A DNA stretch of 40,387 nt from Shigella phage SFPH2: the sequence record MH464253; one strand, written 5' to 3'. Of the stretch, positions 2,455 through 37,838 are shown piece after piece. The notes beneath the pieces were generated by a model. The model searched no databases. It had not been told where the DNA came from and saw only the letters and a list, made by a program, of their open reading frames with translations. The position numbers were made by a program, and so were the translations under genes. How positions within the stretch are numbered: position 1 is the stretch's first letter; each line of letters starts with the position of its first letter.

Positions 2455-2495
2455 AATCAGTCAGGCCACCAGCATGGATGACCTGTAGTCTGGCA
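2455..2495 (-). promoter_or_regulatory. Conserved RNA hairpin A (candidate RNase III processing site)
   Basis: Minus-strand transcript CAGGUCAUCCA..UGGUGGCCUG, stem closed by G-U wobbles; member of a 5-copy family. Confidence 0.5.
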
Positions 2496-2515
2496 CTCGT
2501 CTACAGCGCTAGGCC

Positions 2516-2863
2516 CTAGACCTCCACCGCGATGGTCGTCATCTTGGTTACAGTAAGTCCGCCAGCCAGCTCGACTGCATAGCGTATCGCCTCTTCTTTG
2601 GACTTAAAGTCCTTACCAGCAAGGTGGTATGTGTCCCCTGTTATTACCTTAGATGGACTGCGACTTACCGCAATAGCGTTTTCCATGGCAAGCTCACCAC
2701 GGCTATACTGAGTAAACCAGCGCTTCACCGAACTCGTCCCCACCCCGAACTTTTGGGCTGTTTCCGTCACCCTATCCATAACGCCCTCAGGTAGAGAGGT
2801 GTAGTATTCAACAACGTTGAGTTTAAATGCTAACGAGAATACATTGCGAGTTTTAGCAGTCAT
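2516..2863 (-). CDS. Early protein with putative N-terminal helix-turn-helix (115 aa)
   Basis: ETAQKFGVGTSSVKRWFTQY resembles transposase/sigma-type HTH (A..GVS..T..RW); SD GAAGGAAAG upstream. Confidence 0.6.
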   Translation of the reverse strand: MTAKTRNVFSLAFKLNVVEYYTSLPEGVMDRVTETAQKFGVGTSSVKRWFTQYSRGELAMENAIAVSRSPSKVITGDTYHLAGKDFKSKEEAIRYAVELAGGLTVTKMTTIAVEV

Positions 2864-2884
2864 TATTCTTTCCTTCTATATTTG

Positions 2885-2940
2885 TCAAGTGGTAATCACT
2901 CAGGCCACCATGTAGATGACCTGTAGTTTAACACTCAGTA
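2885..2940 (-). promoter_or_regulatory. Conserved RNA hairpin B (candidate RNase III processing site)
   Basis: CAGGUCAUC-UACAU-GGUGGCCUG with two G-U wobbles, same flanks as hairpins A, C, D. Confidence 0.5.
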
Positions 2941-3060
2941 CCCGCCTGTCAGCGTTATGGTTAGCGCATGGTGGTTAGCCGTGTAGCAGGCCCCGCGCTT
3001 CATCAGCTCGACGAGACCATCATAGAACGCCTGCTCGCTGCTGTAGCTTATCGTGTACAT
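2935..3060 (-). CDS. Small hypothetical ORF (41 aa)
   Basis: ATG overlapping upstream stop (TGATG); MYTISYSSEQAFYDGLVELMKRGACYTANHHALTITLTGGY; below track length cutoff. Confidence 0.3.
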   Translation of the reverse strand: MYTISYSSEQAFYDGLVELMKRGACYTANHHALTITLTGGY

Positions 3061-3263
3061 CAGTAGAACCTCCTTGCGTACTTGAGGAAAGCGCCATCAC
3101 GCAGAATCTCCCAGTCTCCCCAGCTCAGGCTATAGCTATGCGGAAGTTTGAACTCCTTGTTAACGTGTATGCTTGACCGTATGGTCACAAACTTGGAGTC
3201 GCCCACGGTCTCAATATCAACCGTTATCCACGGCTTGATGTGATTAGGGTATGAGTTAATCAT
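3060..3263 (-). CDS. Hypothetical early protein (67 aa, 0.4 position)
   Basis: ATG at 3263 (MINSYPNH) directly after SAMase stop with GGGAGGTGG SD; track start at 3296 lies inside SAMase. Confidence 0.5.
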   Translation of the reverse strand: MINSYPNHIKPWITVDIETVGDSKFVTIRSSIHVNKEFKLPHSYSLSWGDWEILRDGAFLKYARRFY

Positions 3264-3264
3264 C

Positions 3265-3717
3265 TTACACCACCTCCCAGAACCGACCTTCAGCATCTTT
3301 CGTGAAGCATTCGCCCTTTGGTGCCTCGACTTGCTGGAATGCCCCGTTCAGACGTGTGGTCTTGTAGCCATCCAGACCTTTGCAGAACATCAGGCCAGCC
3401 GTGTGAGTCTGAGACTTGTAGACCATCACGCAGTCTTGCTCAAAGTCATTGCAGGCCAGCCGCGCAACGTTGATAGCCTGAGCTTTGGACTCACAGCGCA
3501 CACGATATGTTCTCTCCTCAGTGGCGACCTCTTGCCCTTCCTCGCGGTAGCATCCTGTAAGCCCAGTGCATTCGAGCACACCGTAGTAGTCTGGCTCAGC
3601 TTGTAGCAGTGCCTTAAGGTCTAACTGACGGCCCATGTTCACTATGTCTGACAGTCCAGCACGAGCGGCTGACACGAGCACATAGAAGACGTTAGCTGGT
3701 TCGTTAGTGTAAATCAT
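3265..3717 (-). CDS. gp0.3: S-adenosyl-L-methionine hydrolase/lyase (T3 gene 0.3-type SAMase, anti-restriction)
   Basis: MIYTNEPANVFYVLVSA...TGCYRE...VRC.SKAQAINVARLACN..EQDCVMVYKSQTHTAGL matches T3 SAMase as recalled, near-identical length (150 aa). Confidence 0.88.
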   Translation of the reverse strand: MIYTNEPANVFYVLVSAARAGLSDIVNMGRQLDLKALLQAEPDYYGVLECTGLTGCYREEGQEVATEERTYRVRCESKAQAINVARLACNDFEQDCVMVYKSQTHTAGLMFCKGLDGYKTTRLNGAFQQVEAPKGECFTKDAEGRFWEVV

Positions 3718-3931
3718 GATGTGTATCCTTTAAGTGTGAGTGATTATCATAAAGAGACCTGAGGCGCTCATCTTGAGCCTGACCCGCAGTAGCCAACAAG
3801 TCTCTTGAGTTAATCGCTTACTATCGGCGCACATTAAGAGTTATCCAGATTGTTAAAGAGCATTCGCTTGGCTGTCGTCGCCTCGCTAGCCTGTTTCAGT
3901 GTTAGGCTTCACTGTCGTTTCGATGTGGTTC

Positions 3932-3961
3932 ATACTACTTTAAGTCGTTACTGCTTGTCAA
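3932..3961 (-). promoter_or_regulatory. Candidate host sigma70 promoter (TTGACA-N18-TAGTAT), rightward/sense
   Basis: Hexamers read on minus strand upstream of the early genes. Confidence 0.3.
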
Positions 3962-4076
3962 CTACTTTCTTTCTGTCGGTTGCCTGTTTTTCGTATGTCT
4001 TACAGGCTGACTACTTAACCGGACCGACCCGGCGTCTTCACTATCCGGTTGTTGCCGTGTCGTGTTGACGGAAGCT

Positions 4077-4105
4077 ATTAAACCAAAAGTCAGACCTACT
4101 GTCAA
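4077..4105 (-). promoter_or_regulatory. Candidate host sigma70 early promoter (TTGACA-N17-TTTAAT), rightward/sense
   Basis: Perfect -35 and 17-bp spacer on minus strand, ~360 bp upstream of SAMase. Confidence 0.4.
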
Positions 4106-4168
4106 CAACTATTTATCATGGTAATTTATACAGTAGTCCAATGACTATATAATAACGACTACAGATGA

Positions 4169-4196
4169 TTGACTTTAAGTCTGGACTGTGGATAAT
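4169..4196 (+). promoter_or_regulatory. Candidate sigma70 promoter on the antisense strand (TTGACT-N16-GATAAT)
   Basis: TTGACTttaagtctggactgtgGATAAT on plus strand; closely resembles T7 A1 core (TTGACTtaaagtct...GATACT) but points opposite to all genes. Confidence 0.4.
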
Positions 4197-4199
4197 GAG

Positions 4200-4852
4200 A
4201 GTCCAGTTAGCAAGACACTAACTAATAACCCTAGTCAGCTATGGTCTCTGACTGCTAAACGGACCGGATGTGATAACCTGTGAGTCTAGACCTTAGGACT
4301 CTGATAAACTGAAGGTCGACATGGTGTCTATTGACTGTAGGTAGTGAGACTGTAGGTAGTCCCGTTACCAATGGATTGACTGTAGGTAGTGAGACTGAAG
4401 GTGATGACTCTAGGCTGATACAGATAGCGACTCAGGGACACAACATATAGTCCCGACCAATCGTCCCTACCACAAGATATAGGCCCTATCGGTCCAGACT
4501 TCGGGTCGACTTCGGGTCAAAGACTTGAGGTTTAGACCTTCGGTCTAGGGGTAGGGCCTTTGGTCGAGACTTAAAGAGGGCCTATGGGGAGACTTGAGGT
4601 TCTTGAACTGTGAGATGTGGTCTCAAACTTTTGGTCCAAAACTCATCGTCCCTACTGTAGGCCTCAGCCACTGTAGGTCAAGGACCGTAGGTCAGGCGAC
4701 ACTAGGGTAGACCAGTGAGTAGGATGACCCTAAGTGAGCTTCTCTTAAGGTGTTACCTAAAGTCCTTGACTACAGTAGCTAAGGTCAGTAGAGTAGCGTC
4801 AGCTATGAACTGACCTTAGGTCCGTCTTTCGTTGATTGTTACCATGATGGCG
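4200..4852. repeat. Repeat-rich non-coding terminal region (expected location of physical genome ends / terminal repeat / concatemer junction)
   Basis: No ORF of 60 codons or more on the coding strand; 22-bp perfect direct repeat TTGACTGTAGGTAGTGAGACTG at 4331-4352 and 4376-4397; recurring CTGTAGG, ATCGTCCCTAC, AGACTTGAGG, CTTCGGGTC motifs. Confidence 0.6.
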
Positions 4853-5011
4853 TTAATGACACTCAGACACCAGAGTACATACGAGAGTCTCGACCCACCC
4901 GACCCACTGACTTCCAGCAGTAACGCCAGCAGCAAGTAGAACAGCAGCAAGAAACCTGTATGTAGCTCTATTGGTCGCCAGAGCTTTAAGAACAGCTTTG
5001 GTCTTACCCAT
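4853..5011 (-). CDS. gp19.5: gp19.5-like small protein (52 aa)
   Basis: MGKTKAVLKALATNRATYRFLAAVLLAAGV... resembles T7 gp19.5 (..RVTYRFLVVLCAALGY..); AGGAGGT SD 7 nt upstream; lies downstream of the phiOR-position promoter. Confidence 0.65.
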   Translation of the reverse strand: MGKTKAVLKALATNRATYRFLAAVLLAAGVTAGSQWVGWVETLVCTLVSECH

Positions 5012-5185
5012 GCTACATACCTCCTGTCGCTTAGGGTCTACTTAAGTTATGAGGGTGTGATGATTACAATCACCCTCTCCATCGGTGCTAACCTTAGGTA
5101 AGAACTAAGGAGTCTGCCTCCTAAGGTCTTGCATAAAGTGTGCATATGCTTATTCATTGAGTCTTTACTATAAGTAACCGGGGGT

Positions 5186-5208
5186 CTTCCCTATAGTGAT
5201 AGTTAAGT
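5186..5208 (-). promoter_or_regulatory. Phage RNAP promoter (phiOR position): ACTTAACTATCACTATAGGGAAG
   Basis: Full consensus match between terminase large subunit and gene 19.5. Confidence 0.85.
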
Positions 5209-5301
5209 CCCTTTCCCTTTAGAATCATTAAATTACGAGAGATACCTAACGCACTACTTACTGCTTATACATGCAGATTTCATGCGTAGGTATTCATTAG
5301 G

Positions 5302-7065
5302 TTAGTGGAACTTGACGTAGGACCCTAAGCCTAAGTCATCATCTGTATTGAACTGGACCCGGACCCCATTGTCCCAATAGTCAGTCTCGATGGACTTAAA
5401 GCCTTTCCGAGGGTCTTCCATCTGTTCCTCAAGCCACTCTTCTGTTACTTCACGCTGTCCCTTGACGGCATCCTTCGCCATAGACTCTACGAAGAACTGT
5501 ACACCGATAGCCAGAGCATCAAGTCGGTCGTCATGAGCCAAGGCTCCACGTTCACGGCTGATACGGGTCATCTGGTAGAACAGAGAGTAGATAGGGTTAC
5601 GGACACCATCCTTATCGGCAGCAGTCTGGTAGTCAGACACAATGGTCGAGGAGTTCACGATGAGTCGGTGAGACCCCATGATAGGCTCCAGAACGTCGCA
5701 GATGCGCAGCTCCTTCTGACCCTTACTCTTGACCTCGGTAACTGCTGCCGGGTGAATACGGGCCGCTACAGGCTTGAAGAGTTCGAGATACATACCGTCA
5801 CCGAAGTTACCTTCAATCACGTACTCGTTGACCTTCCACTTACGACCAATCTTAGCCAGAGCCTCCAGCGTAGAGTCCTCATAGCCACCACGCATACCAC
5901 CCGCTTCCATCACGAAGATGTAGCCGTTGAGCTGGTACAGAACCGCATACCCGGTCTCATCCTTACCTCGACCACTTGGGTCAATGACCAGAATCTTCTG
6001 GGTGTACGAACTGAAGGCAGAACCTACAGTCTGATACGTATGGTAGGAATCGCCCATGAGTCCCACGTTAGGAACGTCATCACGCTTGTTCTGAAGGTTC
6101 GGCAGCCACTGGTATACCATAGGGCTAGACTCAGGGTCCAAGTCCGCTACGATAAGGTCACGCAGCTTCAGAGGGTATTTCTCGGCGTCCCCTAGGTTGG
6201 GGTTCAGCATGAACTGTAGGGCGAAGCCCGCCTTACCATAAGACAGCTCACGCTCCTTCAGGTCCTCATCGTCGAAGCGAACCTCATCGGTCGGTCTCCA
6301 GTAGTATCCCTCAGGGTCAGACTCCAGCTCGGCCTGAAGCATAGGAGCCAGACGGTCTCCGTAAGACTTCCAGTCCTTCTCATCACGTGGGTAGCGGGCA
6401 GGCCAGATGGTAGTTGAGTAACCACGACCCTCAAGCTGTCGATACAGGGTCATCTCGGTCTGAGGAGTACCCAGATAGATAACCGTACCACCCGGCTTCA
6501 GGATTGCGTCGAACTCTTTCACCAGCTCTGACAGTCTGTCACGTGCCGCCTGAGTAGCGGAGTTACCGGGGACCTCTACGTCATCGGCAATCAGGATGTC
6601 AGCACGGCTACCAGTTAACTGACCAGTGATACCAACGGACTTAACCGAGGGAGAGTGGTCAGGCTTGGCAGGCCCTACGTCAAAGCTGATTACTGCGTCT
6701 CGCTGCCCCTGCTTAGGCTTCAACTCTTGGAGCTGAGGCATGAGGTCGATGATACGCTTGATGAAGATTGAGTTCGCATCGGCTCGTTCCTTTGAGGCCG
6801 ACACAATCATGAACTTCAAGTCCGGGTTATTCCATAGCTTCCAGACCACGAAGGCACACGTAATGAAGGACTTCCCGATACCACGGAATGCCTGCAAGAT
6901 GAAGCGCCTGTTGTCCCCAGCCGATAGCTTCTTCGCCATGTCAATCTGACAGCGAGTCGGAACAGGAAGTGACAGAGCTTTCCACAGAACGAACAGGAAG
7001 AACACGAAGTCTGACTTCATACGGGCAGTCATAAGCGCCTGACGCGCTGCTAAGTCTTGACTCAA
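5302..7065 (-). CDS. gp19: Terminase large subunit (DNA maturase B)
   Basis: 587 aa; Walker A-like GIGKS, colinear with T7 gp19 (586 aa). Confidence 0.95.
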
Positions 7066-7511
7066 GGTTTCACCTCCTTCTCTTGCTGCAAGGCCCTGAT
7101 GGTCCCCTGCAAGGCCTTAATCCATTCGTCGCCTTTCAGTCCGATGGCGATAAGACGCTTAGCATCTCGCTCGTCAAGGTCGGCGTAGCCATCAACGAGG
7201 CATCGACCGTCACTCTGGACCGTTCCACTGGTAGGCTGGACTCTGATGCGCAGCCGCTTGTTATCGCGGTTAAGGTCAGCAATAATCCTATCAGTAGAGC
7301 CTTCCAGCTCGGACATCTTGTCTTGGTATTCTTTTGCAATACGTGACACCTCTCGCTGTACCGAAGTGCGCGTTCTGTCCTCTGCCTGTAGTTTAGTGAT
7401 GTACTCATCGTTTACCTTCGCCTCCCACTTTGTGTCCGCTACCCAGTAGCCTGAACAGAACAGGAGTCCTGCCACCAACCACGGGAGCGCTTTACGTAAA
7501 AGTTCGAGCAT
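7062..7511 (-). CDS. gp18.5: i-spanin (Rz-like, gp18.5)
   Basis: [19 protein letters not shown]-terminal TMD, ...[21 protein letters not shown]...DERDAKR matches T7 gp18.5. Confidence 0.9.
7136..7408 (-). CDS. gp18.7: o-spanin (Rz1-like lipoprotein) embedded in +1 frame of gp18.5; true start probably internal (TTG before KNTKTR)
   Basis: Embedded ORF with signal-like [17 protein letters not shown] followed by Cys (lipobox-like). Confidence 0.55.
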   Translation of the reverse strand: MSTSLNYRQRTERALRYSERCHVLQKNTKTRCPSWKALLIGLLLTLTAITSGCASESSLPVERSRVTVDASLMATPTLTSEMLSVLSPSD

Positions 7512-7560
7512 AGTTGCCCTCCTGTTTTAAAAGAATTCACGTAGAGTCACCTACGTTAGT

Positions 7561-7615
7561 GTTAATCATGAAGGCCACCCACTACATGTAGTAGATGACC
7601 TTGAGTCTAACACTT
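7561..7615 (-). promoter_or_regulatory. Conserved RNA hairpin C (R18.5-position candidate RNase III site)
   Basis: GGUCAUCUACUAC-AU-GUAGUGGGUGGCC, 13-bp stem with three G-U wobbles; flanks AGACUCAAGG / CCUUCAUGAUUAAC. Confidence 0.55.
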
Positions 7616-7877
7616 ACTGTACACCATACCCGGTGTCATTGTCCTCAGTAGCTGAGAGCACCTTATCGTACTCCCTGTTCAACGCCTCCATGTCAGCTAA
7701 CTGTTTCTCATCCACAGACACCTTGCTGAGTACAAAGTTGTGGCGAGCTAGCAGCTTCTCGATAGCGTTGTAAAGCTGAGGTGAACGCTTGGTGTCATCC
7801 CGCAGGTCTTGCAGCATGAGTCTAGCACGTTCAGTGTCCAGCATTAACAGGAACTTCTCTAAGTCCATCTGCGTCAT
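7614..7877 (-). CDS. gp18: Terminase small subunit (DNA maturase A)
   Basis: 87 aa; ...RSPQLYNAIEKLLARHN.VLSK matches T7 gp18. Confidence 0.9.
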   Translation of the reverse strand: MTQMDLEKFLLMLDTERARLMLQDLRDDTKRSPQLYNAIEKLLARHNFVLSKVSVDEKQLADMEALNREYDKVLSATEDNDTGYGVQ

Positions 7878-8068
7878 GTCTTACCTCCGCTCTTAATCGT
7901 CTTGTAAATCAGTACGCCAATCTGCACCACGGTATACGCGATAGCAGCGACGTAGAACCATTCGTTGAGTGTTAACCCAAAGAAGAACCGACTGGCACCA
8001 TCAGCCGCAGCGGTCCCGACGATAGGCGAGGCTTTGAGGACCTCATTCTTGAAGTCGAACTCAATCAT
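7874..8068 (-). CDS. gp17.5: Holin (class II, gp17.5)
   Basis: ...FFFGLTLNEWFYVAAIAYTVVQIG... near-identical to T7 gp17.5 core. Confidence 0.92.
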   Translation of the reverse strand: MIEFDFKNEVLKASPIVGTAAADGASRFFFGLTLNEWFYVAAIAYTVVQIGVLIYKTIKSGGKT

Positions 8069-13600: not shown

Positions 13601-14577
13601 ATAGGAACATAGGTCAGTGGGTCCACTCCAGCGCCAATCACACCAGCCGCAAGTTGAGCGCCAGTCCCGGCCTTAGCCTTCTCAGCGTCTAACTTCTGGT
13701 TCTCCAGCGCCAAGTTAATCAGCTCGGTCAGATTCTGAGGCGAACCACCAGTGATTACTCCGTAATACTGAGGAAGTACCCCAGCGTTACGAATCTGGTC
13801 TAACTCCTCGCGGGACCACTTGTGGTTATTCCAGCGGGTAGGGTTAAACACATCGCCAATGACATCGAGCGAGTCCTCAGTCTGACCAGCGCGGACAGCC
13901 ACGCCCACCAGAGAGTTCTTCACTTCAGCCTCAGCAGCTCCGCCGAAGCCGAACCATGTAGAGCGGTCAGCTCTTTGGTCCAGCGTCTCGCCAGTTGACT
14001 TATAGAACATCTCTCCGAAAGACTCGTTAGGAGCCTCAGGTTCCTGACCTTCGATGTTCATACCAGTAACGCCCGGAAGGTTCTCTCCAAGAGCGACTTT
14101 AGGTTTAGCCTTCAAGCCCTCCGTGAGAGCGTCGAAGACGTTAGCGCTTACTGGTGGGGTCTTTGGGGTGATGCCTCCAGCACCACTTAAGGCGCGAGAG
14201 ACTCCGAGCTTGTAGACCTCAGGGTCATACCGGGAACCAGTCTCGTGGTAGCCGATAGCCTCAGACAGAGAGGCGAGGACATCAGGGTTCGTCAGGTCGA
14301 TACTTTGGGACGCTGGAATGCCAGTGGCAGCCACAACAGAGTCGATGTAAGACTGAGTGTCGTTCTCGCTAGGTGGTGCCCATCGGTTGATAATCTTCTC
14401 GATTGAGTCGTAGCCTTGGCGACCGTAGGACATCAGGTTCTTCGCCAGAGCGCGGACGCCAGAGTCAGGAGTGTCGAACGTTACGAAAGACCCATCGTCT
14501 CCTGTAGCTCCTTCCCACTGGTCTTTGGAAACACGAATGTTCCCGATGTTATTGTTGCGAATACCACGAGTCGCCAT
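10681..14577 (-). CDS. gp16: Internal virion (core) protein D, gp16-type, with divergent N-terminal ~190 aa
   Basis: 1298 aa; from ...TWFGFGGAAEAEV... onward colinear with T7 gp16 (PATRLEARETARN, SPTGMQSGASGK, ARRVNGDIAIMAGTGKTTKE); N-terminus lacks the T7 lytic-transglycosylase motifs as recalled. Confidence 0.92.
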   Translation of the reverse strand: MATRGIRNNNIGNIRVSKDQWEGATGDDGSFVTFDTPDSGVRALAKNLMSYGRQGYDSIEKIINRWAPPSENDTQSYIDSVVAATGIPASQSIDLTNPDVLASLSEAIGYHETGSRYDPEVYKLGVSRALSGAGGITPKTPPVSANVFDALTEGLKAKPKVALGENLPGVTGMNIEGQEPEAPNESFGEMFYKSTGETLDQRADRSTWFGFGGAAEAEVKNSLVGVAVRAGQTEDSLDVIGDVFNPTRWNNHKWSREELDQIRNAGVLPQYYGVITGGSPQNLTELINLALENQKLDAEKAKAGTGAQLAAGVIGAGVDPLTYVPIAGQVGKGGKLVNKMFTVAAQSGALAGASEIARTSVAGGDAHVSEAIMGGALFGGGMTAIGDALGKALGKSTNEFAGPATRLEARETARNVDGQDLSRLPIREGEQTFSHQGVKFADVPNEPGSVRLEDGSILIGENPLNPKTRQVFDEVIEPERAAAGVNLGGLTEIGLKLLRSENPEIRGLAADLVRSPTGMQSGASGKIGTTASDVFERLRAVDHRFYNDIDDAVTEALKDPYFQTNFNRDTGAFRQDIYQRVALAIEDGSGNLKSELTPGELKVYDLLKNQFDAKREMMENPAMFGRVDAKSIFPGSRFKGTYVPHVYSNQMKELYIKELGSPEALQEAIKKSWLTSYASRPEVKARVDEALMEADPNLTPEGLAAAVEKYANDKAYGISHTDLFERSSVMEENINGLVGLENNNFLEARNLFDSDMSIILPNGQPFSVNSLREWDMDKIVPAYNRRVNGDIAIMAGTGKTTKEMKDAVETLMNRAGDDGKLKGEVSTLRDTLKILTGRARRDGADDAAFATVMRTMTDLSFFAKNAYMGVQNLTEIGGMLARGNVRALLHGVPMFRDLAFRNKKVGASEIKDLHNVIFGKELDDSIRPSKQDVIDRLRAYSALSKPAATALGSAKYYTGELAVRSPFTKVLNGTTNYLLDAGRQGFLSDIVEHSLTGSKRKFDDRWLKTAGISDEQWKGIKSLIRESVTRGPDGKYTIKDKKAFSQDPRAMDLWRMGDAIADETMIRPHKLSNMDAKAYGPMAKTVLQFKNFVIKSINGRTMRTFYNATKNNRAMDAALSTVMSMGLAGMYYMAQAHIKAYAMQDGRDREYLKQALNPTMIGYAALSRSSHLGGPLGVANILGGIAGYEDTKMLRSSILPRSPTEKPERAITYGAAKSDPVMNVVGNFLEQVPAFGYAANVGASAYNLAGYLKADTRVNERDYMTGMYNTFRELVPNDPITQKLLLGTFEEQGIHIKD

Positions 14578-17919: not shown

Positions 17920-17947
17920 AAAGTCTCCTATAACTTAAAGGGCCTAT

Positions 17948-17970
17948 AGTCCCTATAGTGATAGTTAAGT
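17948..17970 (-). promoter_or_regulatory. Phage RNAP promoter (phi13 position): ACTTAACTATCACTATAGGGACT
   Basis: Consensus match between gp12 and gp13. Confidence 0.85.
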
Positions 17971-17994: not shown

Positions 17995-20364
17995 TTAGAT
18001 AGCTTTGGCTTTACGGGCATATGAAGCCTCCCAGCCGCAACCAACGATGGACACTGGGGTCGGATAGTCTGACTCAAGGATTAACCGAGTGTGCAGAGCA
18101 TCTCCGTTCATTGGGAACCTGAACTGACCGTCACCAATGTTAACCTGACCGATGTCCTGTAGACCCAGCTTGTAGCCATTCAGAGTGTTCAGGAACTCAC
18201 GGTGCTGGTTGACAACTCGCATCACCAGAGCACCAGTTCGCTGATAGTTCACCCAAGCGCGGCGAAGCTGTAGTCGACCGGAGTCTTCCGTCACCGTCCC
18301 GTTCTGGTCTTCATACTTAATGAGGAACCGAGAGAAGGCGTAGGTGAACTTATAGACGCGACCAAGGAACACTGTCTTGCCTGACCAGTCCCCCTTCACA
18401 GTCACCCACCGAGTGCTGGACCATACGGTATCCGGCAGTTGGACGAATCGCCCACTGGAGTCTACCATTACGTACTTCCCTGCTGGTGGGAAAACTCCAC
18501 CATAAGCAGCGCCAACGTCGAATGACGAGGTGTATGTGTTAGGGTTAAACGCGTTAGTCGGAATGACCATAGTGGTTTTGCCATCAAGATGCAGGCGGTA
18601 GGGTTCGCCAGCGATGTCCACAGTCTCCTTGATGAACTCCAGCTTCTCCAAGTCCACGCCATAGCCATGCTTACGCACGATGTACATAGCGGACCCGATA
18701 CAGGCTGATGCCATAATCTGCTCGCCCTGCTCCAGCTCCCAGTGTGACCACGAGGCTTGAAGCTGTACGCCATCCTTGAAGAGGAACTTGTAGATGAACA
18801 GCTTGTTCGGAGCGCCCTCAGTCGACACGGTGATGAAGTTCTCAGTAGAGGACCCTTGGATGTCGAATACTCCATTAGGAATATAAGACAGCACATGCCC
18901 GGTCGTATCGTCTGCGTCCTTCACGTCTGTAACGTCAGCCACCGCAAAGTAACGGTTAATGCTGGTGAACGAGCCGCGAGGGGCAGCGAAGAAGACTGAA
19001 CGTCCAATGGCAAACGGTCGAGCATTATCACTAACAGCGAACTCAGAGCCTACATCAAGTTGGATGGACTTGGCTGTCAGCACCCCGGAGCTGGTCATCA
19101 CGAACTGCACCTCGTCAGACCACAGTAGTAGCTGTTCTGCGAATGGTACAGCATACTTCAGGATTGAGATTCGAGGGTGACTCACAGCCACGTCAATCGG
19201 GTCATCATCACTGAGGGTCGCCACGCTCTTAGGGAAGAACGCAAAGTATCCAGCAGACCGGGACATAATGACGTTCTCGCCGGAGAGGAACCCTAAGCGG
19301 TTACGATAGAAGAACACATCGTTAATCGTAGAGTTCACGAAGCTAGGCATCGGGTTGGTCTCATCGTTACCAGCACCACGCTCAGTCCAGTCTAGGGTCT
19401 GGAACCTAAAGTTACCATCTGCCTGTCTGACCAGAGCGTGTGGCATGGTGGAAGCGTCAAAGCCTGTTATGGTCCCCGGCTCCACAGTCTCACGCCAAGT
19501 CTTCTTCGCAGAGTCATACTTCACGAAATACTCATCGGCTGAGCTGTTGGTCTCTCCCTGAATACGGATTATGTATCCTTCAGGTGCTGCCAGAGGTAGC
19601 TTACTGATAGTCTGAACGGTGTCAAGGACTGCGTTGATTAGCTGGTTAGCGTAGCCATCTTCGGTCTCCACCGAGTTGATGGTGGTCCCTGCTGGTGCTT
19701 TAATCTCAATGTAGCCAGACCCAAGGGTGAACGTGTAGTTCGGATAGGCCACGACAAGCAGGTCCACTAACGCCTTGCCGATAGCCTGAGCGTCGACTTT
19801 AGGTGGGTCATCCTTGGCGTTATCTCCCGGAGGAAGCTGGTGCTCAACCTTTGTCCCGCCATTGATTCCTACCTTCAGCAATCTACCGTACTGACCACCA
19901 CGAAGGTTAATCAGTGCGCGGTTCTTCATGTTGTAAGTAGGGTTTGCCTTAGTTGTCCCCTGAGCCACCACAGTGCGGCGATTCACTACGAACGTGTAGT
20001 CAGCTACTGTAATGACCCGGATGTCGTCACGCGGCTTGGAAGTGTTCACGTAGTCCGTTACACCTGAGACAGCGTACTGGTTCCCCTCAAGGTCAAAGAC
20101 CATGATTTCCTTTCCTGTGAAGACGATGTAATACTGCTCGTTCTCGTCCCTGTTAATCAGATGGAACTTAGCGTTGTTCGGGATGACCCAGTTCACTGCT
20201 GAAAGTCTTTTCTTCCAGACGGTCGGTGGTCGCTTCTGAAGCCCGTCACTCTCGGATGACCAGCCGTTAATCTGCTGTTCACCTTGGTCAGAGAACCTCA
20301 GGATGTCCGGCTGTTGGCTAATGCCACCCTTCAGGTTCTTGATTGATTGCGTGTAAAGTGGCAT
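17995..20364 (-). CDS. gp12: Tail tubular protein B
   Basis: 789 aa; QSIKNLKGGISQQPDILR...HLINRDE.EQYY.VFTG...LRRAWVNY match T7 gp12. Confidence 0.95.
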   Translation of the reverse strand: MPLYTQSIKNLKGGISQQPDILRFSDQGEQQINGWSSESDGLQKRPPTVWKKRLSAVNWVIPNNAKFHLINRDENEQYYIVFTGKEIMVFDLEGNQYAVSGVTDYVNTSKPRDDIRVITVADYTFVVNRRTVVAQGTTKANPTYNMKNRALINLRGGQYGRLLKVGINGGTKVEHQLPPGDNAKDDPPKVDAQAIGKALVDLLVVAYPNYTFTLGSGYIEIKAPAGTTINSVETEDGYANQLINAVLDTVQTISKLPLAAPEGYIIRIQGETNSSADEYFVKYDSAKKTWRETVEPGTITGFDASTMPHALVRQADGNFRFQTLDWTERGAGNDETNPMPSFVNSTINDVFFYRNRLGFLSGENVIMSRSAGYFAFFPKSVATLSDDDPIDVAVSHPRISILKYAVPFAEQLLLWSDEVQFVMTSSGVLTAKSIQLDVGSEFAVSDNARPFAIGRSVFFAAPRGSFTSINRYFAVADVTDVKDADDTTGHVLSYIPNGVFDIQGSSTENFITVSTEGAPNKLFIYKFLFKDGVQLQASWSHWELEQGEQIMASACIGSAMYIVRKHGYGVDLEKLEFIKETVDIAGEPYRLHLDGKTTMVIPTNAFNPNTYTSSFDVGAAYGGVFPPAGKYVMVDSSGRFVQLPDTVWSSTRWVTVKGDWSGKTVFLGRVYKFTYAFSRFLIKYEDQNGTVTEDSGRLQLRRAWVNYQRTGALVMRVVNQHREFLNTLNGYKLGLQDIGQVNIGDGQFRFPMNGDALHTRLILESDYPTPVSIVGCGWEASYARKAKAI

Positions 20365-26162: not shown

Positions 26163-26224
26163 CTTAAAGTCTCCTCTTAAAGTATTAACTTAAGTTTATC
26201 TTATAGTCATAACTTAGGTCCTAA

Positions 26225-26247
26225 AGTCCCTATAGTGATAGTTTAGT
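26225..26247 (-). promoter_or_regulatory. Phage RNAP promoter (phi6.5 position): ACTAAACTATCACTATAGGGACT
   Basis: Full consensus in the gp6/gp6.5 intergenic region; preceded by GGGCC-loop-GGCCC hairpin (plus 26346-26363). Confidence 0.88.
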
Positions 26248-30712: not shown

Positions 30713-30724
30713 AATGTCTCCTAT

Positions 30725-30768
30725 AGTCTAATCATAAAGGCCACTCGAAGTGAATGGCCTTGAGTCTA
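30725..30768 (-). promoter_or_regulatory. Conserved RNA hairpin E directly downstream of promoter (transcript 5' stem-loop / candidate RNase III site)
   Basis: GGCCAUUC-ACUUC-GAGUGGCC with G-U wobble, flanks AGACUCAAGG / CCUUUAUGAUUAG as in hairpins C and D. Confidence 0.5.
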
Positions 30769-30788
30769 TCCTACAGTGATAGTTAAGC
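30766..30788 (-). promoter_or_regulatory. Phage RNAP promoter variant upstream of DNA polymerase: CTTAACTATCACTGTAGGATAGA
   Basis: Consensus with one substitution (TGTAGG for TATAGG). Confidence 0.7.
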
Positions 30789-33067: not shown

Positions 33068-33114
33068 TCACTCCTTAGTCAATAGTGCGAACAAAGGGAC
33101 AAGACTCATGGTCT

Positions 33115-33137
33115 CATCCCTAAGGTGATAGTTTAGC
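33115..33137 (-). promoter_or_regulatory. Phage RNAP promoter variant upstream of primase-helicase: GCTAAACTATCACCTTAGGGATG
   Basis: Consensus with 2 substitutions; transcript starts with GGGAUGAGAC-CAUGA-GUCUUGUCCC stem-loop. Confidence 0.65.
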
Positions 33138-33345
33138 TGAAGAAGCCTTTCAGTTGCTCGGCTTTCTTGTCAAGACCTTTGGCACGTAGGCCAGCGTCCA
33201 GAGACTTGATGCGCAGACTATCCGCTTCCGCAGCAGCCGCTTCCGCACCTTTAGCCGCAGCAGATGCGACTTTTCGTTCCACACTCGCAGCACGAGCATA
33301 GCCACGCACAACCAGACGACCCAGAAATTCAATAAACTTAATCAT
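33133..33345 (-). CDS. Hypothetical protein (70 aa), Ala-rich
   Basis: ATG with AAGGAG SD 7 nt upstream, immediately after amidase gene. Confidence 0.55.
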   Translation of the reverse strand: MIKFIEFLGRLVVRGYARAASVERKVASAAAKGAEAAAAEADSLRIKSLDAGLRAKGLDKKAEQLKGFFS

Positions 33346-33359
33346 GTTAGTGCTCCTTG

Positions 33360-33818: not shown

Positions 33819-34032
33819 TGTACACCACCAGCTCGACGATTACGAGATTCAGGTGAGACTTGAAGCGCTCGCTAACGGTCGTGTGCATCTGGAGGCGCTT
33901 ATGGTTGAAGACATGCGAGTTGCTAATCTTCACGTACACTTCGTCCGGTCGACCATGCACGATGAACGCGTAGCCCACCGGGATTTTATCAATGGTCAGT
34001 CGCTCGCGGACTACCTGCACTTCTTTAGTCAT
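33808..34032 (-). CDS. Hypothetical protein (74 aa) inserted between endonuclease I and amidase
   Basis: ATG overlapping gp3 stop with AAGGAG SD 7 nt upstream; no equivalent gene recalled in T7. Confidence 0.5.
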   Translation of the reverse strand: MTKEVQVVRERLTIDKIPVGYAFIVHGRPDEVYVKISNSHVFNHKRLQMHTTVSERFKSHLNLVIVELVVYNGK

Positions 34033-34481
34033 TTCTTAGCTCCTTTCTTCGGGATGAGTATACCTGAGGGCAGACGCACAGTCGCCTCTTTCAGCCACTC
34101 AACCGGGATAAACTTGTCGGCAAACTTAAAGCCGTTCTTTTCGCACCATGCGCCATACGTGGTCGGGGACCCTTTGTACAGCTTGGAGCGGGAGGACGAG
34201 AACACGAACCGGATGTCCAGCTCAGGGTGTTGCTCGCGCACCAGCATATGCTTCTTACGGTCCTCACTGTCGAAGATACCTTTGGTCTCGACGATGATTC
34301 CGTTCGGAAGGATGAAGTCTGGTGTGTACTTGTGGTCGGAAGCCGGAATCACATAGTTGATATAATGGCTTTCGTACTCCGCTTTGACGCCGTTCTGCTC
34401 CAGCCACTGCTGGTTCTTGGCCTCAAGTCCAGAGCGGTAGGCACCCACAGAGTGCCCCCGTTTTGGTGTCCATGCAGCCAC
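34029..34481 (-). CDS. gp3: Endonuclease I (Holliday-junction resolvase)
   Basis: 150 aa; FRSGLE, YVIPAS.H.YTPDF.LPNGI.VETKG, DRKKH.L.REQHPELDIR.VFSSSR.KLYKGSPT.YG..CEK.G.KFADK.IP.EW.KE match T7 gp3. Confidence 0.96.
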   Translation of the reverse strand: MAAWTPKRGHSVGAYRSGLEAKNQQWLEQNGVKAEYESHYINYVIPASDHKYTPDFILPNGIIVETKGIFDSEDRKKHMLVREQHPELDIRFVFSSSRSKLYKGSPTTYGAWCEKNGFKFADKFIPVEWLKEATVRLPSGILIPKKGAKK

Positions 34482-34483
34482 GA

Positions 34484-35182
34484 TTAGAAGTCGTAATCGC
34501 CACCGGACTCAGAGTCATCACCACCCTCGGCATCTTCACCGAAGTCGTCAGACCCGAAGTCACCGTCAGTAGACGCTTTGTAGCCACCGGAGCCGATGTC
34601 TTCATCGTCACCCCAGCCACCATCGCCACCAGTGCCATCGCCGGACCACTCTTTCAGTTCGACCAGCAGGCAGGACTCCAGTTGCAGCTTCACGCTAGCA
34701 CCAGTCGCAGCGTTCCACTTGAACGGCAGGACTTTGAACTTGACCTTCAGCTTAGACCCTGAGCCAATATTCGGGACGTCACGGATGAGTTTAGCATCGG
34801 TGTCGTAGAACCGTAATACGATAGGCTCGGACTTGCCGTCTTTCAAGTAGGACGCAAAGCATTTGAACTTCAGGGTAACAGTGCCGTCACCGTTCTCAAT
34901 CCACGGCATGTCGCCTTCACGTGGTTCGATAGGCTTCTTGCCACGCTGAACCTGAGGCGGGTTCTTCTCGTGGTCTGCGAGTGCTTTTGCATACGCATCG
35001 TCGTGAATCTTCTGCAAGACATCAATCATCTTGCGGACCTTCGGGTCGCTCAGGTCGAATGTCAGGTTGACTTTATGCTCACCGCGCTCGTTGTACTTGG
35101 TGTCTGCTTTGTTAAGCCATGCGTAAGGCTCAACGATACCAGCTACCGGAGTGGTGAAAGTCTTCAGTTGCTCTTTAGCCAT
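34484..35182 (-). CDS. gp2.5: Single-stranded DNA-binding protein
   Basis: 232 aa (same as T7 gp2.5); EPYA, ANPP.V.RGKKP..P.EGDMP...NGDGT.T.KFKC.AS, IGSGSKLKVK..L.P.KWN...GASVKLQLES..LVEL, acidic C-tail ending DF. Confidence 0.96.
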   Translation of the reverse strand: MAKEQLKTFTTPVAGIVEPYAWLNKADTKYNERGEHKVNLTFDLSDPKVRKMIDVLQKIHDDAYAKALADHEKNPPQVQRGKKPIEPREGDMPWIENGDGTVTLKFKCFASYLKDGKSEPIVLRFYDTDAKLIRDVPNIGSGSKLKVKFKVLPFKWNAATGASVKLQLESCLLVELKEWSGDGTGGDGGWGDDEDIGSGGYKASTDGDFGSDDFGEDAEGGDDSESGGDYDF

Positions 35183-35211
35183 CGGTGTAAATCTCCTAGT
35201 TAAAGTTAAGG

Positions 35212-35234
35212 TGTTCCTAAAGTGATAGTTTAGT
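35212..35234 (-). promoter_or_regulatory. Phage RNAP promoter variant (phi2.5 position): ACTAAACTATCACTTTAGGAACA
   Basis: Consensus with one substitution, overlapping gp2 stop, upstream of SSB. Confidence 0.7.
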
Positions 35235-35394
35235 CGTGCAGCTCAGGTCGGATGCGGCCTACCACGAAACCAGCATCTTCATACTCCTGAGACTTTAGGG
35301 TCGCCTCGTCCAGAGACTTGGCGTATACCGGGACCTCAAAGGACTGAACGCGACCCTCAAGCTCCACGATGTACTTCTTTTCTTCAAGGCTCAT
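35230..35394 (-). CDS. gp2: Inhibitor of host RNA polymerase (T7 gp2-like)
   Basis: [34 protein letters not shown] matches T7 gp2 [35 protein letters not shown]; ATG at 35394 preferred over track GTG at 35412. Confidence 0.85.
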
Positions 35395-35472
35395 AGCCCT
35401 CTCCCCTTCCACAGGTTATACATTTCGAGATAGTCTGTGTTACCTGTCCTCTCGAACATCATCTCGCACCAT

Positions 35473-35780
35473 TCACTCGGAGTCATGACTACCAGCCTTA
35501 CTCTGAGCTACCATACGAGCACCGAAGAACTCGACTTTCTCTGCATCGTAAAGACCATCATCTTTAGCGCCAGCTTTACGCAGACCCAAGGTCCGCTGGG
35601 CGGCTCGACGCCATATTGCCTTGAACGCATTGCCTTCCGCGAAGTTCATACCAAGAGCTTCGATGATGTCGTTGCACTCAGCGATGTACTCAGGTCGACC
35701 GGGGGTAGTGGTGCTCTTTATGTGGACCTGATAGTAGTCAGCAGAACCGCCAGTGTAGATAGGCTGTTCATTTTAGTCAT
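35473..35780 (-). pseudogene. Apparent frameshifted gene: SD-ATG (35780) opens a 20-codon frame, while ~100 protein-like codons continue in the adjacent frame to TGA at 35473
   Basis: AAGGAGG 5 nt before ATG ACT AAA ATG...TAA; other frame reads NEQPIYTGGSADYYQVHIK...AIWRRAAQRTLGLRKAG...SHDSE; one extra A in the A4 run (plus 35771-35774) would fuse them. Confidence 0.4.
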
Positions 35781-36033
35781 TGACCACCTCCTTCACAAAC
35801 TCAATGAACAGACGAACGCGAGGCCACTTGGTGTAGACCACAGGTACGCTGGTCTCACGCTTCTGGCGAGCCTCTTCAGCTTTGCCCGGAGTAATCAGAG
35901 CGAAGACTGTAGGTGACAGCTTAATGGCCTTCCCGAAGTAGCCCAGCTTCTCGTTGCGCTTAATGCAAGCGAACGGGTTGTGGGACAGATGGAAGGTATT
36001 GGAATAACGGTTGAACATTAAGTTCTTAAACAT
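35773..36033 (-). CDS. Hypothetical protein (86 aa, gene 1.6 position)
   Basis: ATG with AAGGAGG SD 7 nt upstream. Confidence 0.65.
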   Translation of the reverse strand: MFKNLMFNRYSNTFHLSHNPFACIKRNEKLGYFGKAIKLSPTVFALITPGKAEEARQKRETSVPVVYTKWPRVRLFIEFVKEVVND

Positions 36034-36061
36034 GGTCGGCCTCCTTAGGTCGAAGTTATTG

Positions 36062-36084
36062 TTGTCCTATAGTGATAGCTTAGT
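36062..36084 (-). promoter_or_regulatory. Phage RNAP promoter (phi1.5/1.6 position): CTAAGCTATCACTATAGGACAAC
   Basis: Consensus match after ligase and early terminator. Confidence 0.8.
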
Positions 36085-36172
36085 CGTCTAGGCACTCCCC
36101 TACCAGCCACGTAAGGCCGTAGACCAGCAGGCATGACAACAAGAAAACTAATGTAATATAGAGCATAAGCAT
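36080..36172 (-). CDS. Small hydrophobic ORF (30 aa, gene 1.4 position)
   Basis: GGAGGA SD 8 nt before ATG; MLMLYITLVFLLSCLLVYGLTWLVGECLDD; below track cutoff. Confidence 0.35.
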   Translation of the reverse strand: MLMLYITLVFLLSCLLVYGLTWLVGECLDD

Positions 36173-36193
36173 GAGTATGGTCCTCCAGAATGC

Positions 36194-36224
36194 GAAAAGA
36201 CCCAGCAGTACGAAGACCACTGGG
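36194..36224 (-). terminator. Candidate intrinsic early terminator (TE position, after ligase)
   Basis: CCCAGUGG-ucuucgua-CUGCUGGG stem (with G-U pairs) followed by UCUUUUCG. Confidence 0.55.
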
Positions 36225-36235
36225 TTGACGTTTAG

Positions 36236-37276
36236 TTAACTCTTAACGGTTGGATTGTCTTCAGTTCCACGCCAGCACTTGAAGCTGGGATGACGAAGGG
36301 ATCCATCTGGGAACCGCTCCATGAAGAGGACTTCACACTGCCAGCCGTTGAAGAACTCCTCACCTTCTGGGTACTCTTTTACCGCTGCGGTGAACTCGTC
36401 CTTCTGTGTTTCAGTCAGACCACAGGCGTTAACCACCATGCCATCCTCCAGCAGAACCTCGAAGCCGATGACCTTACCTTCGTTGGCCTTACCCGGAGTC
36501 CCCCACACGAGGCCACACACGGTCCCGTCTACGGTCTCCTCAGGCTTCATCTTCCACATGCCTGACTTCTTGCCACGCTTGTACTTACCCAGCGGGTCCT
36601 TGACTACCAGACCCTCGTGTCCTTCCAGACGCTTCTCTTCGTACAGGGAGTTGAGCGACTCAAGGTCATAGACCGTGTGTGACTCAGACAGAACCCAGTC
36701 GATTTCCGGGAAGTATTTCTGGAGGAGAGGGACGATAGCTTCGGCCTTCAGGCGAGTGACGCTATGGATAGGACCTTCGGCTTTCGGGTCGTTGATGACG
36801 TTAAGGTCGATGACCCCGTAGACGATTACCTTGATGTGTTCTGGGTCCAGTCTGAATGGTGTAGTCTTTGACTTCAGGTCCCAGTCACCATCGTGGAAGT
36901 CGTAGTTCTTAGACTTGACGTACTTCGTTCGGATAAGACCGGATGATGTGTTGAAGTCCACACCCTTGACCATCACCTCGCCATCAATCATCAGGCCAGA
37001 TACTTCATGTCCTGCTTGCTTCAGGAACCATCGCCAGTCGGACGCACGGCACGCTCCGATGTCCTGACCAACTGTTGACAAATGGTCTAAGGCCGGAAGC
37101 GTCTTAGACTCACGGCTTAACCATTCAGTTCGCCCATCAGGGAAGACAGGAATATTCAACCGCACACCGTCATACTTCACTTCAGCTTCCAGCGACCCGG
37201 CAGCTTCCAGTGCTTTCTTAACGCCAGACTCAGAGTAATCTACAGCGCGGTGCGGGTTAGTTTTGATAGTTGTCAT
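36236..37276 (-). CDS. gp1.3: ATP-dependent DNA ligase
   Basis: 346 aa; IKTNP..AV...ES..KKAL, adenylation motif KYDGVR, MIDGEVMVKGVDFNTSSGL.RTK, FPEI.W, EGHEGLVVKDP...YKRGKKSG.WKMKPE, DGSLRHPSF match T7 ligase. Confidence 0.96.
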   Translation of the reverse strand: MTTIKTNPHRAVDYSESGVKKALEAAGSLEAEVKYDGVRLNIPVFPDGRTEWLSRESKTLPALDHLSTVGQDIGACRASDWRWFLKQAGHEVSGLMIDGEVMVKGVDFNTSSGLIRTKYVKSKNYDFHDGDWDLKSKTTPFRLDPEHIKVIVYGVIDLNVINDPKAEGPIHSVTRLKAEAIVPLLQKYFPEIDWVLSESHTVYDLESLNSLYEEKRLEGHEGLVVKDPLGKYKRGKKSGMWKMKPEETVDGTVCGLVWGTPGKANEGKVIGFEVLLEDGMVVNACGLTETQKDEFTAAVKEYPEGEEFFNGWQCEVLFMERFPDGSLRHPSFKCWRGTEDNPTVKS

Positions 37277-37293
37277 CGTTAATGTCTCCAGAA

Positions 37294-37581
37294 TTAAAGG
37301 AATCGACCAGTGTAGTCGTTGAACTGTTTGTTAAACCAAGTGGCAACCGCTACGGTCTGCACATCTTCGTCATGAATATTCGGGTACTCCGTGAAGTCCT
37401 TCTCGATGAGGACCTCTTTCGTATGGCTGTGGACTATAACCGCCCGGACGCAGTGCCTGTTCATCATTGGGTCGAACCAAGTGCTTACCACTGCGTTATA
37501 GTCGGTCTCGGACTGCCAGTTGTGAATAGCTCTGCGGAGGGTGTTCAGGTTTCCACTATGCGCTCTTGAGAACATGCCCAT
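37294..37581 (-). CDS. gp1.2: gp1.2-like protein (host dGTPase inhibitor in T7)
   Basis: 95 aa; SGNL, HDEDV and W..W features similar to recalled T7 gp1.2; synteny after gene 1.1. Confidence 0.7.
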   Translation of the reverse strand: MGMFSRAHSGNLNTLRRAIHNWQSETDYNAVVSTWFDPMMNRHCVRAVIVHSHTKEVLIEKDFTEYPNIHDEDVQTVAVATWFNKQFNDYTGRFL

Positions 37582-37584
37582 GTT

Positions 37585-37764
37585 TTACGCTCCTACGAAA
37601 TACTTCTCTTGGTTAACCAGCGAGTCTTTACCTTCAGCGTTACGGAAAGCACCCTTGACACCACCGCCACGCTTGGTCTTGTTCAGCTTGCGTCCCTTCG
37701 GAATGTAGCCTTCAGTCTGCTGACGTTCACGGATGCGCTCGAAGTTGATAGTGTTCTGATACAT
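37585..37764 (-). CDS. gp1.1: gp1.1-like small basic protein (59 aa)
   Basis: MYQNTINFERIRERQQTEGYIPKGRKLNKTKRGGG...; KGRKLNKTKR identical to T7 gp1.1 motif; AGGAG SD; below track cutoff. Confidence 0.75.
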   Translation of the reverse strand: MYQNTINFERIRERQQTEGYIPKGRKLNKTKRGGGVKGAFRNAEGKDSLVNQEKYFVGA

Positions 37765-37792
37765 GGTGTAGCTCCTGAGTGAATTGGTTAGG

Positions 37793-37838
37793 GTTAATCA
37801 TGAAGGCCACGACTTTGAGTCATGACCTTGAGTCTAAT
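37793..37838 (-). promoter_or_regulatory. Conserved RNA hairpin D (R1.1-position candidate RNase III site) at 5' end of phi1.1 transcript
   Basis: AAGGUCAUGACU-caa-AGUCGUGGCCUU: 12-bp stem with two G-U wobbles, 3-nt loop. Confidence 0.55.

Follow-up and report, generated by a model that had tools for sequence, protein, structure and literature searches.

The five hairpins that a preliminary description had located at 2455–2495, 2885–2940, 7561–7615, 30725–30768 and 37793–37838 in the genome of Shigella phage SFPH2 (MH464253) were all found there on the minus (coding) strand, and they are very probably RNase III processing signals of the T7/T3 type in polycistronic mRNAs; cleavage itself we infer from sequence and structure. 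The window, the whole stretch of 40,387 nucleotides that was analysed, represents, in circularly permuted form, the genome of a T7-like phage in the genus Kayfunavirus, with its genes on the minus strand. The reading as RNase III sites, already proposed in that description, is supported by fold, strand bias, covariation and synteny, and by homology both to the T3 sites that are annotated and to those of T7. The elements are irregular hairpins of about two turns with two stems and an asymmetric internal loop, as seen in the minimum free energy folds, the consensus fold and the covariation. They lie on the transcribed strand, between genes and at conserved map positions (R0.3, early operon, R1.1, R4.7 and R18.5). 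Table 1 summarizes the features; individual hairpins are named below by their first position.

Table 1. Predicted processing sites and the kinase gene in the window, with folding energies of the minus-strand RNA and its complement (kcal/mol) and cut positions predicted by alignment to T7 sites
Feature	Coordinates	Strand	G-U pairs in upper stem	Minus-strand RNA	Complement	Match	Predicted cut
Sixth family member	1637..1702	-		-22.4	-14.8	33-38 bits, E ~1e-7 to 1e-8	
Gene 0.7-like protein kinase	1689..2423	-				phrog_15752, E = 4.5e-114	
Early-operon RNase III site, predicted, R1-type variant (hairpin 2455)	2441..2506	-	2	-17.9	-11.9		2459/2458
Early-operon RNase III site, predicted, R1-type variant ACAGGUCAUC...GGUGGCCUGA (hairpin 2885)	2880..2944	-	2	-19.3	-9.8		2898/2897
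Putative R0.3 homologue before SAMase gene	3731..3827	-		-29.1	-32.6	20 bits, E = 0.0015; 15 bits, E = 0.1	
R18.5-position RNase III site, predicted (hairpin 7561)	7550..7623	-	3	-21.2	-9.8		7568/7567
R4.7-equivalent RNase III site, predicted (hairpin 30725)	30716..30782	-	1	-15.4	-12.0		30734/30733
R1.1-position RNase III site, predicted (hairpin 37793)	37782..37851	-	2	-16.6	-10.6	model 65.8 bits	37800/37799 (T7 R1.1)

In the consensus fold, an upper stem is separated from a lower stem of approximately 6–9 bp by an internal loop with about 4 nt in its 5' arm and 5 nt in its 3' arm. The upper stem has 9–15 bp in the window, and it is in the lengths of the apical stem and loop that T7 R1.1 differs, with 10 bp and a GCAA loop. 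Direct reading of the upper stems confirmed that each needs one to three G-U pairs. When both strands were folded, the energies were unequal for all five copies, with the minus-strand RNA better by 3.4–11.4 kcal/mol; equal energies would, by the preliminary description's own criterion, have refuted the reading. The claim that the stems fold only in the minus-strand RNA is overstated, since their complements also fold, albeit with less stability, and that of 30725 retains z = -2.3. By folding energy alone, 2455 and 2885 were unremarkable (z = -1.8; 11 of 200 shuffles folded equally well), and their significance therefore comes from homology, not from folding energy.

The window copies carry the core of T7 R1.1, AAGGUCAU...GUGGCCUU, which supplies the initial 8 bp of the upper stem and includes both U-G wobbles. 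Over these 8 bp, which adjoin the internal loop, three copies do not differ from T7 R1.1. The loop flanks (ACUC on the 5' side, (U/C)AUGA on the 3' side) and the pairs of the lower stem are also alike. With up to 3 mismatches, GTGGCCTTYATGATTA was matched five times in the window against 0.37 expected; four of the matches are copies 2885, 7561, 30725 and 37793, and the fifth is a 3-mismatch match on the plus strand. The exact flanks AGACUCAAGG and GUGGCCUU(C/U)AUGAUUA, which had been attributed to all five, are shared by 7561, 30725 and 37793 only, while 2455 and 2885 have (A/G)ACUACAGG...CCUGA(C/G)UGAUU. These two copies are, judging by sequence, the R1-type variant (CAGG/CCUG) of T7 and T3; T3 R1 carries it as CAGGUCAUC...GGUGGCCUGA, and site 2880..2944 aligns with both T7 R1 and T3 R1. 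The variant stands before gene 1 in T3, whereas in SFPH2 it is found upstream of the kinase gene and of a small ORF with a helix-turn-helix (HTH) motif.

A covariance model (labelled R1) was built from the five window copies alone. The scores of 69–74 bits that these copies obtain are circular, since the model derives from these very copies, but independent sites in T3 and T7 are recovered as well. In the annotated benchmark, the T3 record AJ318471, the eight best matches (R0.5, R1.1, R4.7, R6.5, R0.3, R1.3, R18.5 and R1; all E <= 0.016, all in sense orientation) coincide with eight out of ten stem-loops annotated as 'RNase III recognition site', and no other match outscores them; these T3 sites equal the window copies in consensus and architecture. 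In T7, R0.3, R0.5, R1, R1.1, R1.3, R4.7, R6.5 and R18.5 were found with 17–56 bits, of which R1.1 scored 56 bits. What we take to be the T7 cleavage coordinates of Dunn and Studier (1983), checked for internal consistency only, coincide with the eight T7 matches and fall at one aligned position, CCUU(U/C)A(U/C)↓GA (arrow, cut). Direct joint alignment of the window, T7 and T3 sites gave the common motif AGUGNUANACUCAAGGUCAU...GUGGCCUUUAUGAUUA. The T7 records NC_001604 and V01146 list no RNase III features, and Rfam, searched at gathering thresholds over the entire window, returned no match, which is uninformative as no family fits. In the literature searched on RNase III sites in K1F and Kayfunavirus, nothing relevant was found, and no experimental end-mapping for SFPH2 or any other Kayfunavirus.

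The pair next to the loop is C-G in 2455 and 2885, and likewise in T7 R1 and T3 R1. According to PMC1540722, catalysis on the minimal uR1.1 substrate is lowered by a G-C or C-G pair adjoining the scissile bond; such a pair uncouples binding from cleavage, and some substrates can be bound by RNase III but not cut. Together with the location of the hairpins 12–47 nt upstream of start codons, this would suit RNA elements that stay uncut and that might stabilise 3' ends, modulate translation of the downstream gene or be bound by RNase III without cleavage. However, the homology to annotated T3 RNase III sites and to T7 sites holds position by position, and the CAGG/CCUG variant is itself common to T7 R1 and T3 R1; we regard uncut elements as improbable.

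If the hairpins are RNase III processing sites, host RNase III would bind the roughly two-turn helix and cut a single strand on the 3' side of the internal loop, three nucleotides past the upper stem (CCUU(C/U)AU↓GAUUA), the cut being limited to one strand because of the internal loop. Both two-turn helices and internal loops that restrict cleavage to one strand are counted among the established features of RNase III substrates (PMC1540722). The upstream mRNA would be left with a stable 3' hairpin, protective against 3' exonucleases, and the downstream mRNA would start 12–47 nt before the next start codon. The exact cut positions in SFPH2 are predictions obtained by alignment to T7 sites.

The genes flanking 37793 and 7561 agree with the earlier placement of these copies at the T7 R1.1 and R18.5 positions. 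A phage promoter (37852–37839) runs directly into hairpin 37793, which is followed by a 59-aa ORF (ATG 37764), a weak homologue of gene 1.2 and the ligase gene. Hairpin 7561, whose upper stem has 15 bp, lies between gp18 (small terminase, 7614–7877) and the Rz-like gp18.5 (7062–7511). The copy reported behind the promoter before gene 5 was likewise found as described: promoter 30783–30770 is followed by hairpin 30725, with a stem nearly identical to T7 R1.1, and by gene 5 (DNA polymerase, ATG 30712). This site is the positional equivalent of R4.7 and is no novelty, as in T3, too, R4.7 immediately precedes gene 5. Two window copies (37793 and 30725) thus sit directly behind phage promoters, a layout reported to be common in T7 (PMC6938266) and that 37793 shares with T7 R1.1.

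Stable, G+C-containing hairpins between genes might also be intrinsic transcription terminators or pause sites. We find this hardly conceivable, as termination immediately behind two promoters would be self-defeating, no hairpin is followed by a U-tract (the 3' flank is CAUGAUUAAC), and a terminator scan of positions 1–8000, which hold four family hairpins, flagged none of them; intrinsic terminators were accordingly rejected.

The two copies assigned earlier to the early operon are 2455 and 2885, both of the R1 type. Downstream of 2880..2944 lies the 115-aa ORF with the HTH motif (2516–2863), which has no PHROG family, and site 2441..2506 lies upstream of the gene 0.7-like kinase (ATG 2423). 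SFPH2 encodes a kinase of the type that stimulates RNase III in T7, where the gene 0.7 kinase phosphorylates the host enzyme (PMC4858673); this context is in favour of the RNase III reading.

The family is larger than the five copies first counted, with at least seven members in the window. A sixth member, overlooked in the preliminary description, overlaps the kinase stop codon at 1637–1702 and precedes a 96-aa ORF; its fold has z = -4.45, and its stem resembles T7 R18.5 (AGGCCACUAC...UAGUGGUCU). The weaker element noticed before the SAMase gene is real, spans 3731–3827 and lacks strand asymmetry (Table 1). It is probably an R0.3 homologue: the match to the model is weak, and the assignment rests on position and on the conserved flanks UAACUCAAG...CUUUAUGAUAAUCACU, which are retained around an enlarged, branched upper stem. 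The SAMase gene (3265–3717) is an ORF 62% identical to the T3 SAMase, and T3 likewise has R0.3 before its SAMase gene. Compared with T7, SFPH2 has no copy of the family type at the R1, R1.3 or R6.5 positions and has three early-operon copies around the kinase gene; before gene 1 there is a different hairpin with a promoter-like sequence. Matches at 928–1001, 26196–26241 and 17930–17964 (10–12 bits, E ~0.5–2) were folded as well and were not counted as members. The latter two are short hairpins immediately behind the promoters that precede gene 6.5 and gene 13; they recall R3.8 and R13 of T7 and T3, which are short RNase III sites overlapping promoters, but they reach only 10–12 bits and fold weakly. 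A tandem-repeat search of non-coding 3830–5300 gave nothing of note.

Related loci were gathered by querying with RNA polymerase, DNA polymerase and terminase, which together replaced a gp18.5 query that gave only 12 loci. Across 180 related-phage loci, 317 matches (218 + 99) were obtained, without exception on the sense strand and at syntenic intergenic positions. In the relatives, the R4.7-type site lies 4 nt before gene 5 (T7 copy at 13846–13910), and in the terminase loci the distance from the R18.5-type orthologues to gene 19 downstream is approximately 490 nt. Both helices covary among relatives, and a second set agrees. For 107 distinct related sequences, in alignments that were fitted to the model, 93% of cells were paired and 14 of 19 pairs showed double changes; the observed covariation score was reached by 0 of 500 shuffles, and slid controls paired 20–48% of cells. 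The U-G pair next to GG/CC was kept in 105 of the 107.

These results also bear on whether the repeats act as DNA, for example as linkers for recombination where modules meet, or as signals for replication or packaging, with the RNA fold being incidental. The copies do stand at gene-module boundaries, the 115-aa ORF lies between two near-identical copies, and relatives vary in how many early-operon copies they have. However, the conserved G-U pairs are mismatches in the complement, compensatory changes keep the pairing despite sequence change, and all 317 matches are on the transcribed strand; a function at the DNA level instead of the RNA level is thus very improbable. It is less improbable, though still unlikely, that the conserved sites of about 50 nt double as homologous-recombination linkers for the gain or swap of early-operon cassettes, beside RNA processing. 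The bracketing of the HTH ORF by the R1-type copies at 2441–2506 and 2880–2944 would fit this idea, as would the variable number and spacing of early-operon copies among close relatives and an 8-bp core, U-G wobble included, that varies less than the structure by itself would demand.

Ever since the genome papers on T7 and T3, this type of element has been textbook knowledge, together with its mechanism and map positions. Accordingly, the hairpin family itself brings no new biology, and its identification in SFPH2 is correct but ordinary. The practical value lies in annotation, as Kayfunavirus genomes such as K1F and Dev2 have GenBank records in which no such RNase III site features are annotated. 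Since the model is small and gave no T3 false positives above true sites, it could be used to annotate processing sites across Studiervirinae, and known sites help to set mRNA boundaries for phage engineering and gene-expression models.

All five hairpins, named here by their first positions, were found on the minus strand (Table), and the claim of the preliminary description that every stem holds one to three G-U pairs was borne out by direct counting in the upper stems (1 in 30725; 2 each in 2455, 2885 and 37793; 3 in 7561). Consensus folding of the five copies gave an upper and a lower stem on either side of an internal loop, with 4 nt in the 5' strand of the loop and 5 nt in its 3' strand; compensatory differences were seen between the window paralogues. 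The minus-strand RNAs folded at -15.4 to -21.2 kcal/mol and the complements at -9.8 to -12.0 kcal/mol. The two energies are thus unequal, which confirms the strand asymmetry. The complements fold too, however, so the statement that the hairpins fold only in the minus-strand RNA was too strong. By folding energy alone, the three late copies clearly surpassed shuffled sequence (z = -3.3 to -3.7), but 2455 and 2885 were unremarkable (z = -1.8). The flanks first quoted for all copies occur unaltered only at 7561, 30725 and 37793, while those at 2455 and 2885 are ACUACAGGUCAUC…GGUGGCCUGA(C/G)UGAUU.

The full window was searched on both strands, with filters off, using R1, a covariance model trained on the five window copies alone and distinct from the T7/T3 site R1. 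A sixth clear copy, 1637, was added to the confirmed five (33 bits, E = 1e-7); it overlaps the kinase stop codon and folds at -22.4 kcal/mol, compared with -14.8 for its complement (z = -4.45). The weaker element described before the SAMase gene was also recovered (20 bits, E = 0.0015). There, conserved flanks enclose an enlarged, branched upper stem with no strand asymmetry of folding, and the following ORF is 62% identical to T3 SAMase. No significant match was obtained on the plus strand, and a broader model, R2, returned an identical list.

The identity of the hairpins was decided by applying R1 to phages with documented RNase III sites. In T3 (GenBank AJ318471, ten stem_loops labelled "RNase III recognition site"), the best eight matches were eight of the ten annotated sites (R0.5, R1.1, R4.7, R6.5, R0.3, R1.3, R18.5 and R1), all on the sense strand with E <= 0.016 and no other match ranked between; only the short R3.8 and R13 were missed. 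In T7, eight sites were found. As RNase III features are absent from the T7 records examined, the cleavage coordinates reported by Dunn & Studier (1983) were used. All eight fell inside the R1 matches, at one aligned position 3 nt past the upper stem, CCUU(U/C)A(U/C)↓GA; wrong coordinates would be unlikely to agree so consistently. When aligned jointly, the window, T7 and T3 sites fall into a single family (consensus AGUGNUANACUCAAGGUCAU…GUGGCCUUUAUGAUUA). The stem of T7 R1.1 is nearly matched by 30725, T7 R18.5 is resembled by 1637, and T7 R1 and T3 R1 have a CAGG/CCUG variant in common with 2455 and 2885. As judged by these sequence comparisons, the interpretation of the hairpins as T7/T3-type RNase III sites is right, and their cleavage is predicted.

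Regions surrounding the genes for RNA polymerase, DNA polymerase and the large terminase in related phages were taken from IMG/VR. Matches numbered 218 with R1 in the 80 RNA polymerase loci and 99 with R2 in the 100 loci for DNA polymerase and terminase, and every one was on the sense strand. Gene 5 begins 4 nt past the hairpin end in close relatives; in T7-like genomes the hairpin lies ~440 nt upstream of gene 5, before gene 4.7, and the match in the locus that is T7 itself (L150) is R4.7. In the terminase loci, it lies ~490 nt upstream of gene 19, that is, before gene 18.5. Pairing with two-sided changes was found in these relatives: among 107 distinct sequences, in alignments whose fitting to the model somewhat favours the structure, 93% of pairs were standard and 14 of 19 had changed on both sides. 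This covariation was reached by 0 of 500 shuffles, and a second set of related sequences agreed. Slid controls, which keep the sequence relatedness, paired at only 20–48%, which argues for a genuine signal. Covariation in the lower stem is free. Next to the loop, the upper stem (A-U, G-C, G-C, U-G, C-G) is nearly invariant, which would be expected of a segment recognised by a protein. Conserved G-U pairs, compensatory changes and the absolute strand bias all speak against a role purely at the DNA level. Terminators were excluded, as there is no U-tract and a terminator scan of 1-8000 flagged none of the four family hairpins in that range.

The U-G wobble that follows GG/CC (columns 31/53 and 27/54 of related-phage alignments A2 and A3; e.g. 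U37826-G37807) was retained as U-G in nearly all distinct related sequences (105 of 107 and 67 of 71), with no replacement by C-G or U-A. Yet in vitro cleavage is reported to rise slightly when the pair is made G-U or G-C (PMC1540722).

E. coli RNase III substrates typically span two helical turns, internal loops limit cutting to one phosphodiester, and the 3' hairpin left by the cut shields upstream RNA from 3'-to-5' exonucleases (PMC1540722). By alignment with T7, each of the five hairpins would be cut once, giving a leader of 12–47 nt ahead of the next start codon. During T7 infection, the phage kinase raises RNase III activity (PMC4858673). The gene after 2455 encodes a gene 0.7-type kinase (phrog_15752, E = 4.5e-114; described in PHROG as positively regulating RNase III), and this phage might stimulate the enzyme likewise. 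Less probably, individual copies bind RNase III without being cut. At 2455 and 2885 a C-G pair adjoins the internal loop, and a pair of this kind lowers catalysis in a minimal substrate (PMC1540722), but T7 R1 and T3 R1 have it too. No RNA end-mapping for the genus Kayfunavirus was found in the literature searched.

Table. Features of the window and T7 sites matched by R1 (window cuts predicted; T7 cuts as reported by Dunn & Studier)
Feature	Position	Strand	Cut
Hairpin 2455	2455-2495	minus	2459/2458
Hairpin 2885	2885-2940	minus	2898/2897
Hairpin 7561	7561-7615	minus	7568/7567
Hairpin 30725	30725-30768	minus	30734/30733
Hairpin 37793	37793-37838	minus	37800/37799
Sixth copy (1637)	1637-1702	minus	
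SAMase element	3731-3827	minus	
Promoter-like hairpin	925-1002	minus	
Weak post-promoter hairpins (10–12 bits, weak folds)	26196-26241, 17930-17964	minus	
Small hairpin, T-rich tail	7539-7556	minus	
115-aa ORF	2516-2863	minus	
R1-type hairpins flanking the ORF (full extents of hairpins 2455 and 2885)	2441-2506, 2880-2944	minus	
Promoter-like sequences, first six	37852, 36079, 35229, 33132, 30783, 26242	minus	
Promoter-like sequences, last six	23423, 22427, 17965, 10680, 5203, 1002	minus	
T7 site	845-908		890
T7 site	1420-1486		1468
T7 site	3091-3156		3138
T7 site	5840-5905		5887
T7 site	6400-6466		6448
T7 site	13846-13910		13892
T7 site	18494-18581		18563
T7 site	36809-36874		36856

The proposed map positions also held. 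Hairpin 7561 lies between gp18 (small terminase) and the Rz-like gp18.5, the R18.5 position. Hairpin 37793 follows a phage promoter and precedes a 59-aa ORF; it is assigned to the R1.1 position because a weak gene 1.2 homologue and the ligase come after that ORF. Searching with ACTATCACTATAGG, also given as (T/A)AACTATCACTATAGG, at <=2 mismatches gave 12 promoter-like sequences on the minus strand and none on the plus strand of the window. Two of the 12 lead straight into family hairpins; RNase III sites shortly behind a transcription start are described as common in T7 (PMC6938266). Just upstream of the phage's RNA polymerase gene, promoter-like ACTATCACTAAAGG, which departs from the consensus of the phage promoters at a single position, makes up the 5' arm of a long hairpin (-19 kcal/mol, z = -2.4) whose lower stem, UAUCACUAAAG/CUUUAGUGAUA, pairs perfectly over 11 bp. 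It was rejected as a family-type site (11 bits), though at the R1 position; several relatives carry a perfect consensus promoter there within a differently paired hairpin. The promoters before genes 6.5 and 13 are followed by short weak hairpins (GGGACUUUAGGACCUAAGUU, GGGACUAUAGGCCCUUUAAGU) at the positions of T7/T3 R6.5 and R13. A second small hairpin, ACGTAGGTGACTCTACGT GAATTCTTTT, lying between the R18.5 site, which it directly follows, and gene 18.5, was flagged by the terminator scan.

The 115-aa ORF lies between two near-identical hairpins; PHROG gave no match for it, and its helix-turn-helix hit (BrkDBD, 23.1 bits; cut-off 23.4) was borderline. Most relatives have a single R1-type hairpin ahead of the kinase gene, and in the closest relative (L016) the early-operon hairpins are spaced differently. 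The ORF looks like a cassette inserted along with a duplication of the hairpin site.

The window was matched to T7-like phages (genus Kayfunavirus): identity is 95.8% to Shigella phage ESh23 over a stretch of 8 kb, and 91–96% to Cronobacter phages Dev2 and GW1 and Citrobacter phage SH4. All long ORFs are on the minus strand. The window is a circularly permuted phage genome cut open within gene 1, because the RNA polymerase frame descends from 909 to 1 and carries on unbroken from 40387 (…GGYWAKGR/RPLPLIR…), its 303 + 591 codons equalling the length of Dev2 gp1. Work on T7 and T3 long ago established the RNase III element type, its consensus, its map positions and its mechanism. No RNase III sites are listed in the K1F and Dev2 records, although R2 matched six in K1F and four in Dev2. 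The finding is an ordinary one, and what is missing in Kayfunavirus is the annotation of RNase III sites.
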